In this document: piece by piece, positions 36,948 through 48,455 of the stretch
Position numbering within the stretch: position 1 is the first letter of the stretch
Layout: every line of letters begins with the position of its first letter
NCBI GenBank assembly: GCA_029838195.1
Contig: JALGVJ010000026.1
Span: 1 to 50,958, forward strand
Length of the DNA stretch: 50,958 bases
Source of the DNA: Promethearchaeota archaeon
Lineage (GTDB): Archaea; Asgardarchaeota; Lokiarchaeia; Sigyniarchaeales; SOKP01
Reading direction: 5' to 3'
Position numbers and translations under genes: made by a program
The notes under the pieces: generated by a model
Database searches by the model: none
The model's input: only the letters and a program-made list of their open reading frames with translations
What the model was told of the DNA's origin: nothing

Positions 36948-37040
36948 GGCCCTTGCTAGTGGGAGTGGTCTCCAACACCAGGCTTCAAACCTGGTTATCC
37001 TGCGAAGGGATAGCGGTTCGATTCCGCGCAGGGGCCGCCA
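36948..37040 (+). tRNA. selC: tRNA-Sec (UCA), 9/4 fold, encoded CCA
   Basis: 9-bp acceptor GGCCCTTGC/GCAGGGGCC; long D stem; ACCAGG-CT-TCA-AA-CCTGGT anticodon arm; long variable arm; 4-bp T stem GCGG/CCGC; G73-CCA. Confidence 0.96.
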
Positions 37041-40090: not shown

Positions 40091-40298
40091 TGGTCCATCG
40101 GGGATTTACGGCAAATCTGGACGCCAGATCCTTTATTTTATATCTTTCGAACCCCGGATCTCGGGTTGTCCTCGCCCGAGAGAGCTTCATTTATTTCATG
40201 TCCTCTCGGATGTCTTATAAGACCCGCGCTTGTTGGCCAAGCGGACACACCCGTTAACCATTCCAGAGAGGTAACCCTCTTGGCTGAGCTAATGGACC
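40091..40298 (-). tRNA. tRNA-Ile (UAU), interrupted by about four introns
   Basis: Removing 40261..40281, about 40232..40254, about 40168..40215 and about 40106..40146 yields a 75-nt cloverleaf: GGTCCAT TA GCTC AGCCTGGTTA AAGC G CGGGT CT-TAT-AA ACCCG AGATC CGGGG TTCGAAT CCCCG ATGGACC A. Confidence 0.8.
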
Positions 40299-40561
40299 AC
40301 TCAAGCTTCTTAAGAACATGCATGAGTGCTTCAATTGATATCATGGTATATATTTGAAAATTTATTTAGTGAAGCTCATGCAATTGTTCTAATCTAGTGT
40401 AAGGAAAGGTAAAAAAAAAATTTTCTGGAAATATCATGGGGAGGAGATTAGTTAGGGAAAAGAAGTTGAGGAAAGTCATACATTTATATTTTGGTTCTCT
40501 TATTATAATAATAACCATAAAAAAGGAGTAGAAAATAACGAGAGGAAAGCGTGGATAGACC

Positions 40562-48322: not shown

Positions 48323-48455
48323 GCAACGGTAGCGCAGCCTGGTAACGCGCTGGCTTGGAGTTGATGAAAATGACTAAAAAGCCAGTGTCCATTTGGACTC
48401 GGGGGTTCAATTTTTCCAACATGTCGTTGATAAGGAATAAATCCCTCCCGTTGCG
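48323..48455 (+). tRNA. tRNA-Ser (GGA) with two introns (37/38 and 58/59)
   Basis: Acceptor GCAACGG/CCGTTGC-G73; long variable arm GTCC/GGAC; introns 48361..48379 and 48411..48440 each form BHB motifs. Confidence 0.92.

Follow-up and report, generated by a model that had tools for sequence, protein, structure and literature searches.

On the minus strand of the window (the whole stretch of 50,958 nt that was analysed), positions 40298..40091 constitute, with a probability of about 0.9, a tRNA-Ile(UAU) gene of a Lokiarchaeota-type Asgard archaeon that is interrupted by four BHB-type introns and whose five exons are spliced into a 75-nt tRNA. The gene spans 208 nt and consists of exons of 17, 6, 16, 22 and 14 nt and introns of 21, 23, 48 and 41 nt, the latter located at sites 17/17a, 21/22, 37/38 and 59/60 (mature tRNA numbering), i.e. 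two in the D loop, one in the anticodon loop and one in the T loop. The original prediction had placed a tRNA gene with about four introns (133 of 208 nt removed) and this same distribution of insertions here, and its coordinates proved exact. The exons, introns and associated elements are as follows.

40347..40355, minus strand: candidate TATA box AAATATATA, read from the sequence, 49-57 nt upstream of the mature 5' end
40282..40298, minus strand: exon 1 (17 nt, positions 1-17), comprising the acceptor 5' strand GGTCCAT, U8 A9, D-stem GCTC and D-loop AGCC; runs into exon 2 in orthologues lacking intron 1
40261..40281, minus strand: intron 1 (21 nt), site 17/17a in the D loop; strict BHB core, HBh' type
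40255..40260, minus strand: exon 2, a 6-nt micro-exon TGGTTA (U17a G18 G19 U20 U20a A21), delimited with the help of orthologues
40232..40254, minus strand: intron 2 (23 nt), site 21/22 in the D loop; strict BHB core, HBh' form
40216..40231, minus strand: exon 3 (16 nt), comprising the D-stem 3' strand AAGC, G26, anticodon stem CGGGT and C32 U33 U34 A35 U36 A37
40168..40215, minus strand: intron 3 (48 nt), canonical 37/38 site; relaxed hBH motif
40175..40210, minus strand: hairpin-ACA element inside intron 3, compared across 42 family orthologues
40146..40167, minus strand: exon 4 (22 nt), comprising A38, the anticodon stem 3' strand ACCCG, variable loop AGATC, T-stem CGGGG and T-loop TTCGAA (54-59)
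40105..40145, minus strand: intron 4 (41 nt), site 59/60 in the T loop; relaxed hBH motif
40091..40104, minus strand: exon 5 (14 nt), comprising U60, the T-stem 3' strand CCCCG, acceptor 3' strand ATGGACC and discriminator A73

Structure and detection of the gene

The gene begins with GGTCCAT-TA-GCTCAG at its 5' end (40298), and its 3' part, GGGGTTCGAA...ATCCCCG-ATGGACC-A, finishes with the discriminator A at 40091; CCA is not encoded. Excision of 40281-40261, 40254-40232, 40215-40168 and 40145-40105 (18-38, 45-67, 84-131 and 154-194 in precursor numbering) removes 133 nt in total, and the remaining 75 nt are called tRNA-Ile(tat) by ARAGORN. The spliced product has stems of 7/4/5/5 bp, U8, A14, G18G19, U33, a T-loop TTCRA and a discriminator, with a C.A mismatch at 13:22. 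A plus-strand reading of the locus was rejected, as the tRNA features lie on the minus strand only. The five exons are colinear within the 208 nt, unlike those of split or permuted tRNA genes. The locus forms an island of 50% GC in a genome of 33.5% GC.

As had been foreseen for so heavily interrupted a gene, it escaped both scanners that were run. ARAGORN called a tRNA-Sec gene as its only tRNA in the window, and the tRNA-Sec was again the sole tRNA at Rfam gathering thresholds. A permissive Rfam scan of the unspliced sequence gave no tRNA match at the locus, which was also absent from the whole-genome RF00005 list (Rfam/Infernal). The gene was recovered by a blind solver, in which every BHB-like pair of cut sites was collected, all non-overlapping combinations of up to five were formed and the products were scored for a cloverleaf. 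From 104 BHB candidates and 10,435 combinations, the solver arrived at this same set of four introns, whose spliced product scored 29 for the cloverleaf. For comparison, the inner sequence was shuffled 120 times with dinucleotides preserved and the acceptor and T arms kept; any cloverleaf at all was obtained in 14 of these shuffles, the maximum score was 26 and none (0/120) reached that of the real sequence. The precursor also folded better than each of 200 shuffles (200/200, z = -3.7). A five-intron output of the solver at C69:511-776 was discarded as AT-rich junk (cloverleaf score 24).

Complementarity between a GAGT leader and an ACTC trailer, proposed originally as an extension of the acceptor stem, exists in the sequence at this locus, but the pairing is absent from all 22 orthologues checked. 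It is probably fortuitous, judging from this comparison, and a role of such a helix as a processing signal was rejected.

Splice motifs, orthologues and splicing machinery

Cut sites were predicted with the BHB geometry described in PMC4090602 and coincided with the comparative junctions for all four introns. The motif of intron 1 is a clean BHB, described exactly right in the original prediction, with a fully paired helix (TCAG/CTGG, 4/4), bulges CCA and AAT, an inner stem AGAGG/CCTCT of 5 bp and an outer helix of 1 bp. The other three introns had been credited with relaxed motifs only. This applies to introns 3 and 4, which have one helix mismatch each, but not to intron 2, whose strict core consists of the helix TGGT/GCCA (4/4) and bulges TAA and ACA, together with an inner stem of 6 bp (three G-U) and no outer helix. 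Intron 3 has the central helix CTTA/GAGG (3/4, A.G mismatch) and bulges TAA and ACA, with the 5-bp anticodon stem as its outer helix; intron 4 has the central helix TTCG/CGTA (3/4, U.U mismatch) and bulges AAA and AAT, with the 5-bp T stem in the same role. The inner stem measures 1 bp in each of these two introns, and intron 4 additionally holds an internal 8-bp hairpin.

Nesting or ordered splicing had been considered possible. The unspliced transcript allows each of the four BHBs to be drawn, and nesting is not needed. An order of removal is likely for the D-loop introns: nucleotide 40260 is both the last bulge base of intron 1 and the first base of the intron 2 helix, so that the two motifs cannot both be canonical at once, and given this overlap and the 6-nt exon between them, introns 1 and 2 are probably excised one after the other rather than together.

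A mobile-element origin of the introns was rejected: a blastn-short search with each intron against the whole genome returned self matches and chance matches of 11-17 nt only, and no copies of the four introns were found elsewhere in the genome. A C/D-box guide in the 48-nt intron 3 was likewise discarded on inspection, which revealed no C or D boxes.

Orthologues, whose comparison had been recommended along with the original prediction, were collected by BLAST against relatives and then by a search for a 16-nt stretch (D-stem 3' strand to anticodon loop) in the 154 genomes of the order. Of the 134 family genomes, 124 have the gene, in most cases as a single copy; it occurs once in this genome, where no other UAU-anticodon gene was found. 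The 75-nt product was then aligned to about 45 orthologous loci with long gaps permitted. The tRNA-Ile(UAU) orthologues of the family carry one to four introns: four at the same four sites in the congener G001 and in G007 and G048, three in, for instance, G053 and G006, two in many orthologues and one in G012 and G037. Two further genomes (G060 and G151) also have four introns, in other site combinations (9/10, 45/46 and others). Five introns were found in none of the approximately 45 orthologues sampled, and the interruptions observed across the family fall at eight or more different sites. Among those at the two loci with other site combinations (L147 at G151:C15 and L132 at G060:C101) are introns at 45/46 and an insert of 100 nt that follows position 9.

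Intron-less states define three of the four sites. Intron 1 is absent in L004, L005, L007, L023, L030, L041, L044 and others, and present in G001, G007, G048, G053 and G063, with other sequence and the same helix geometry. Intron 2 is absent in L023, L028, L030, L041, L044 and L050, and intron 4 in L004, L005, L007, L023, L041, L046 and L048. The D loop is an unbroken AGCCTGGTTA in the intron-less L023, and the same with C17U in L030, L041 and L044. Orthologues without intron 1, 2 or 4 thus read straight through, which fixes these junctions and identifies TGGTTA as a real exon. The 37/38 intron is present in every orthologue examined (about 45). The D-loop helices are fully paired (4/4) in nearly all orthologue copies although the intron sequences are unrelated; at the site of intron 2, 16 orthologue introns were scored, and in 15 of them TGGT is paired with GCCA, GTCA, ATCA or ATCG. 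Of the 12 other orthologues that have an intron in the T arm, 10 show a 4/4 T-loop helix (TTCG/CGAA, TTCA/TGAA). At the intron 3 site, most orthologues reach a 4/4 helix only in the 38/39 register, and the congener G001 has 3/4.

These comparisons bear on the possibility that the gene has fewer introns, with the D-loop inserts forming one composite or nested intron or one of the inserts being retained as an enlarged loop. The close abutment of the two D-loop BHBs, which share a nucleotide and leave so short an exon between them, would fit such an arrangement, and tRNAscan-SE output is reported to leave D-arm inserts in 'mature' Asgard tRNAs. Against it, there are orthologues with intron 2 only (L004, L007, L048 and others), with both introns (G001, G007, G048 and G053) and with neither (L023, L030 and L041), TGGTTA is always kept in the D loop, each insert has its own 4/4 BHB core, and removal of 18-67 as one unit would delete G18 G19. 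We therefore regard fewer than four introns as very improbable and retain two separate introns in the D loop.

The enzymes expected to process such a precursor are encoded in the genome, a draft MAG with 96.6% completeness and 7.9% contamination. Three ORFs with an EndA domain were found. The alpha subunit (202 aa, encoded on contig C1) has the Tyr/His/Lys triad; its residues 24-202, nearly the full chain, can be aligned to the corresponding subunit of Aeropyrum pernix (3p1z_B, E = 6e-36), and one of its lysines aligns with K44 of the Crenarchaea-specific loop of the A. pernix protein. The beta-like subunit comprises 199 aa and lacks the His. RtcB is present (553 bits). The closest EndA relatives (69-86% identity) come from MAGs labelled Promethearchaeota or Promethearchaeia, e.g. 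'Loki_b31'; these are the current NCBI names for Lokiarchaeota. The original prediction had concluded that an endonuclease of relaxed specificity was implied, and the predicted alpha/beta EndA pair with its K44-equivalent lysine agrees with this. The Crenarchaea-specific loop has been tied to the cleavage of relaxed motifs, with its lysine K44 connected to broad specificity, and has been reported in Asgard EndAs (PMC5829648), and we assume, by analogy, that the predicted relaxed specificity of this Asgard EndA would permit cutting of the imperfect BHBs. The third ORF encodes a truncated, beta-like EndA domain of 106 aa (G000:C53:22042-22209; L020:1492-1812, minus strand) that is closely similar to the C8-encoded beta subunit; its origin could lie in contamination, or it may be a duplicate or a pseudogene.

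Splicing and its order are inferred here from the motifs and enzyme genes. Transcription would give a precursor of at least 208 nt with four protein-spliced introns. A heterotetramer-type EndA (catalytic alpha plus structural beta) would cut two nt 3' of each strand of the 4-bp helices, RtcB would ligate the five exons (17+6+16+22+14 nt) into the 75-nt tRNA, and this would then be end-trimmed and receive its CCA. Such a pathway would require that a single 208-nt transcript be cut exactly at eight places and ligated at four, with a 6-nt exon being rescued on the way. With its one to four introns, the tRNA-Ile(UAU) family offers a compact system in which to study intron gain and loss and the substrate range of an Asgard splicing endonuclease.

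AUA decoding and the hairpin-ACA element of intron 3

A search of the order for the TiaS domain TiaS_FLD (PF08489) was negative in all 154 genomes, 39 of them of high quality, whereas the domain was detected in 4/4 archaeal control genomes. ATA accounts for 23.4 per 1000 codons and 24% of the Ile codons. As no TiaS was found and AUA is common, the UAU tRNA is probably the only AUA decoder and all four excisions would then be essential. By this reading of the genome, the single-copy tRNA-Ile(UAU) would be the sole reader of AUA, as in eukaryotes, although TiaS or another AUA decoder may lie on DNA missing from this draft MAG. The proteome would hang on the correct splicing of one tRNA for a codon used 23 times per 1000. 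AUA decoding in the order at large looks eukaryote-like, with TiaS_FLD in 0/154 genomes and tRNA-Ile(UAU) near-universal in the family; a literature search on TiaS in Asgard archaea returned nothing specific and no paper stating a eukaryote-like AUA decoding.

The gene could alternatively be a decaying pseudo-tRNA whose inserts are junk that is never removed, with AUA being read by another tRNA. It shares with a pseudogene the lack of a call by standard scanners, and two of its four BHBs are imperfect; moreover, a 212-nt tRNA-Ile(TAT) of Atabeyarchaeia was flagged 'possible pseudo' by tRNAscan-SE (PMC11291895). Decay is nevertheless very improbable for a single-copy gene that is kept in 124 of 134 family genomes, in a genome with no second UAU-anticodon gene, an order with no detected TiaS and a coding sequence with 23 AUA per 1000 codons. 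Among 20 distinct spliced orthologues, 20 of the 21 cloverleaf pairs are standard save one C.C cell, the non-standard pair being 13:22, a mismatch in most of them as it is here; compensatory double changes occur at 9 of the 21 pairs, and the anticodon loop CTTATAA is invariant. On this comparative evidence, the gene is conserved and under selection and not a pseudogene. A different structured RNA (for instance an SscA-like or H/ACA-like sRNA) that resembles a tRNA by accident might be suggested by a weak SscA match at 40111-40197 and by the GC-rich island in AT-rich DNA, but is scarcely credible. With 25.5 bits (E = 0.07) in the permissive Rfam scan, the match falls far short of the gathering cut-off of 60, and it spans parts of two introns and an exon. 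The cloverleaf solution, by contrast, is the only one, outscores every shuffle and shows covariation in the orthologues. The SscA match was dismissed as a chance hit, as was a meaningless HgcG match from the same scan.

The anticodon intron of the tRNA-Ile(UAU) gene is unusually long, with 45-81 nt in 42 family orthologues as opposed to 19-30 nt in most other anticodon-loop introns of the genome, and it contains a hairpin-ACA element. The hairpin has 9 bp here (5' strand 40210-40202, 3' strand 40183-40175), and its 5' strand is directly followed by ACA (40201-40199) and then a 15-nt A-rich loop. Across the 42 orthologues, the hairpin comprises 7-10 bp with a covarying stem (GGAC/GUCC, AGAC/GUCU, AGUC/GACU, GAAC/GUUC; here GAGAGG/CUCUC). 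The ACA lies within 0-2 nt of the hairpin 5' strand in 41/42, its spacing from U36 is 16-17 nt in 39/42 (15 nt here) and it follows U34 by 18-19 nt; the remainder of the hairpin loop is variable. Elements of this kind can be found, for instance, at L007:1517-1579 and L032:1505-1569. The element is confined to tRNA-Ile(UAU) among the anticodon-loop introns of the genome and was absent from the two orthologues of other families that were inspected. Intron 3, kept in all orthologues examined, may do more than interrupt the gene.

The hairpin can stack on a GGUC/GRCC helix to yield about 12-13 bp plus ACA. In this form, it resembles the lower stem and ACA box of an H/ACA RNA, and also the T-stem/acceptor helix and CCA of a tRNA, with U34 taking the position of U55. 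The shape is also similar to what is bound by the PUA domain of Cbf5. Classification as an H/ACA guide RNA was rejected: a conserved pocket, upper stem and K-turn are lacking, the ACA follows the 5' strand of the hairpin inside the loop and not the 3' strand of a lower stem, and there was no significant Rfam H/ACA match at the locus. By analogy, the element might recruit Cbf5 (or a T-arm enzyme, e.g. Pus10) and have the UAU anticodon pseudouridylated in cis before splicing, a tentative suggestion that we consider rather unlikely. If true, the pseudouridine would stop the tRNA from reading AUG in a lineage without TiaS, and the arrangement would parallel, in an archaeon, the formation of Psi34/Psi36 in eukaryotic tRNA-Ile(UAU), for which dependence on the intron is documented (PMC9602550). 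H/ACA-guided Psi35 of intron-containing pre-tRNA-Tyr is documented in Sulfolobales (PMC2651775).

Multi-intron tRNA genes in this genome and elsewhere

The tRNA genes of the genome were surveyed with the same solver, seeded on an intact T-arm 5' half, so that the census is partial and misses genes interrupted there. It resolved 40 tRNA genes among the candidates, with a mean of about 1.2 introns per gene, distributed as follows.

0 introns: 9 genes
1 intron: 18 genes
2 introns: 9 genes
3 introns: 3 genes
4 introns: 1 gene, tRNA-Ile(UAU)

By intron number, the tRNA-Ile(UAU) gene is an outlier within its own genome in this partial census. The 59/60 site is occupied by an intron of 30-34 nt in no fewer than 12 other tRNA genes (contigs C19, C23, C38, C41, C50, C58, C69, C72 and C87); these introns are very uniform in length, but no sequence resemblance is obvious among them or with intron 4. 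At 96.6% completeness, the genome yields only about 25 tRNAs that pass the Rfam cut-off, a number that an intron-hidden gene such as tRNA-Ile(UAU) helps to account for.

The original prediction had taken three introns as the known limit and four as extreme, which does not hold. In Valentin-Alvarado et al. 2024 (PMC11291895), Supplementary Data 4 provides columns for four introns and lists genes with this number for Arg-TCT, Ile2-CAT and Leu-GAG of Freyarchaeia and Trp-CCA of Atabeyarchaeia, and a preprint (10.64898/2026.10.13.758758) gives 2.2 intervening sequences per gene in its focal families and 'up to five in a single gene'. The preprint focuses on Jordiarchaeia and Atabeyarchaeia as intron-rich classes and states that D-arm inserts are preferentially missed by tRNAscan-SE; the strings 'Lokiarchae' and 'Promethearchae' do not occur in its main text. 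Four introns are thus not a record and the splicing mechanism is a known one; the gene is a well-supported further example of the multi-intron Asgard tRNA genes reported since 2024, from an Asgard lineage (Lokiarchaeota/Promethearchaeia) outside the classes singled out as intron-rich. It shares with the Atabeyarchaeia and Freyarchaeia genes an Asgard host, BHB-type introns in both canonical and non-canonical positions, D-arm inserts overlooked by annotators, two EndA paralogues and a repeated gain of introns at different sites. The present case differs in its Lokiarchaeota/Promethearchaeia lineage, its approximately 1.2 introns per gene, a tRNA-Ile with a UAU anticodon and the lack of a detected TiaS.

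Outside the Asgard archaea, the gene resembles those of Thermoproteales in having several BHB, HBh' or hBH introns per gene and an (alpha-beta)2 EndA with the Crenarchaea-specific loop, and in that the T stem closes the T-loop intron just as the anticodon stem closes the canonical intron. To our knowledge, three introns per tRNA gene are the maximum for Thermoproteales. An example is tRNA-Pro(UGG) of Pyrobaculum islandicum, with three introns, at 25/26, 37/38 and 56/57 (Sugahara et al. 2007, 2008, cited in PMC4090602), as compared with four here; the hosts are hyperthermophilic, GC-rich Crenarchaeota, whereas the present one is an Asgard archaeon with 33.5% GC. The tRNA-Ile(UAU) of C. merolae has three introns in the same three arms (PMC9602550). 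It is the same tRNA species, so that AUA is read by a UAU anticodon and not a modified CAU, and in C. merolae intron removal and anticodon pseudouridylation are interlinked. That system is eukaryotic, with a eukaryotic endonuclease, three introns and experimental data, whereas the gene described here has four and is known from its sequence.

Two further tRNA genes lie in the window. The solver identified a second hidden one, tRNA-Ser(GGA), at 48323-48455 (plus strand, 133 nt), which was missed by both ARAGORN and Rfam and carries two introns, one of 19 nt following mature position 38 and one of 30 nt in the T loop. The tRNA-Sec (UCA) gene is located at 36948-37040 (plus strand; called by ARAGORN and by Rfam RF01852 at 53.9 bits) and fits the selenocysteine use reported for Asgard archaea.
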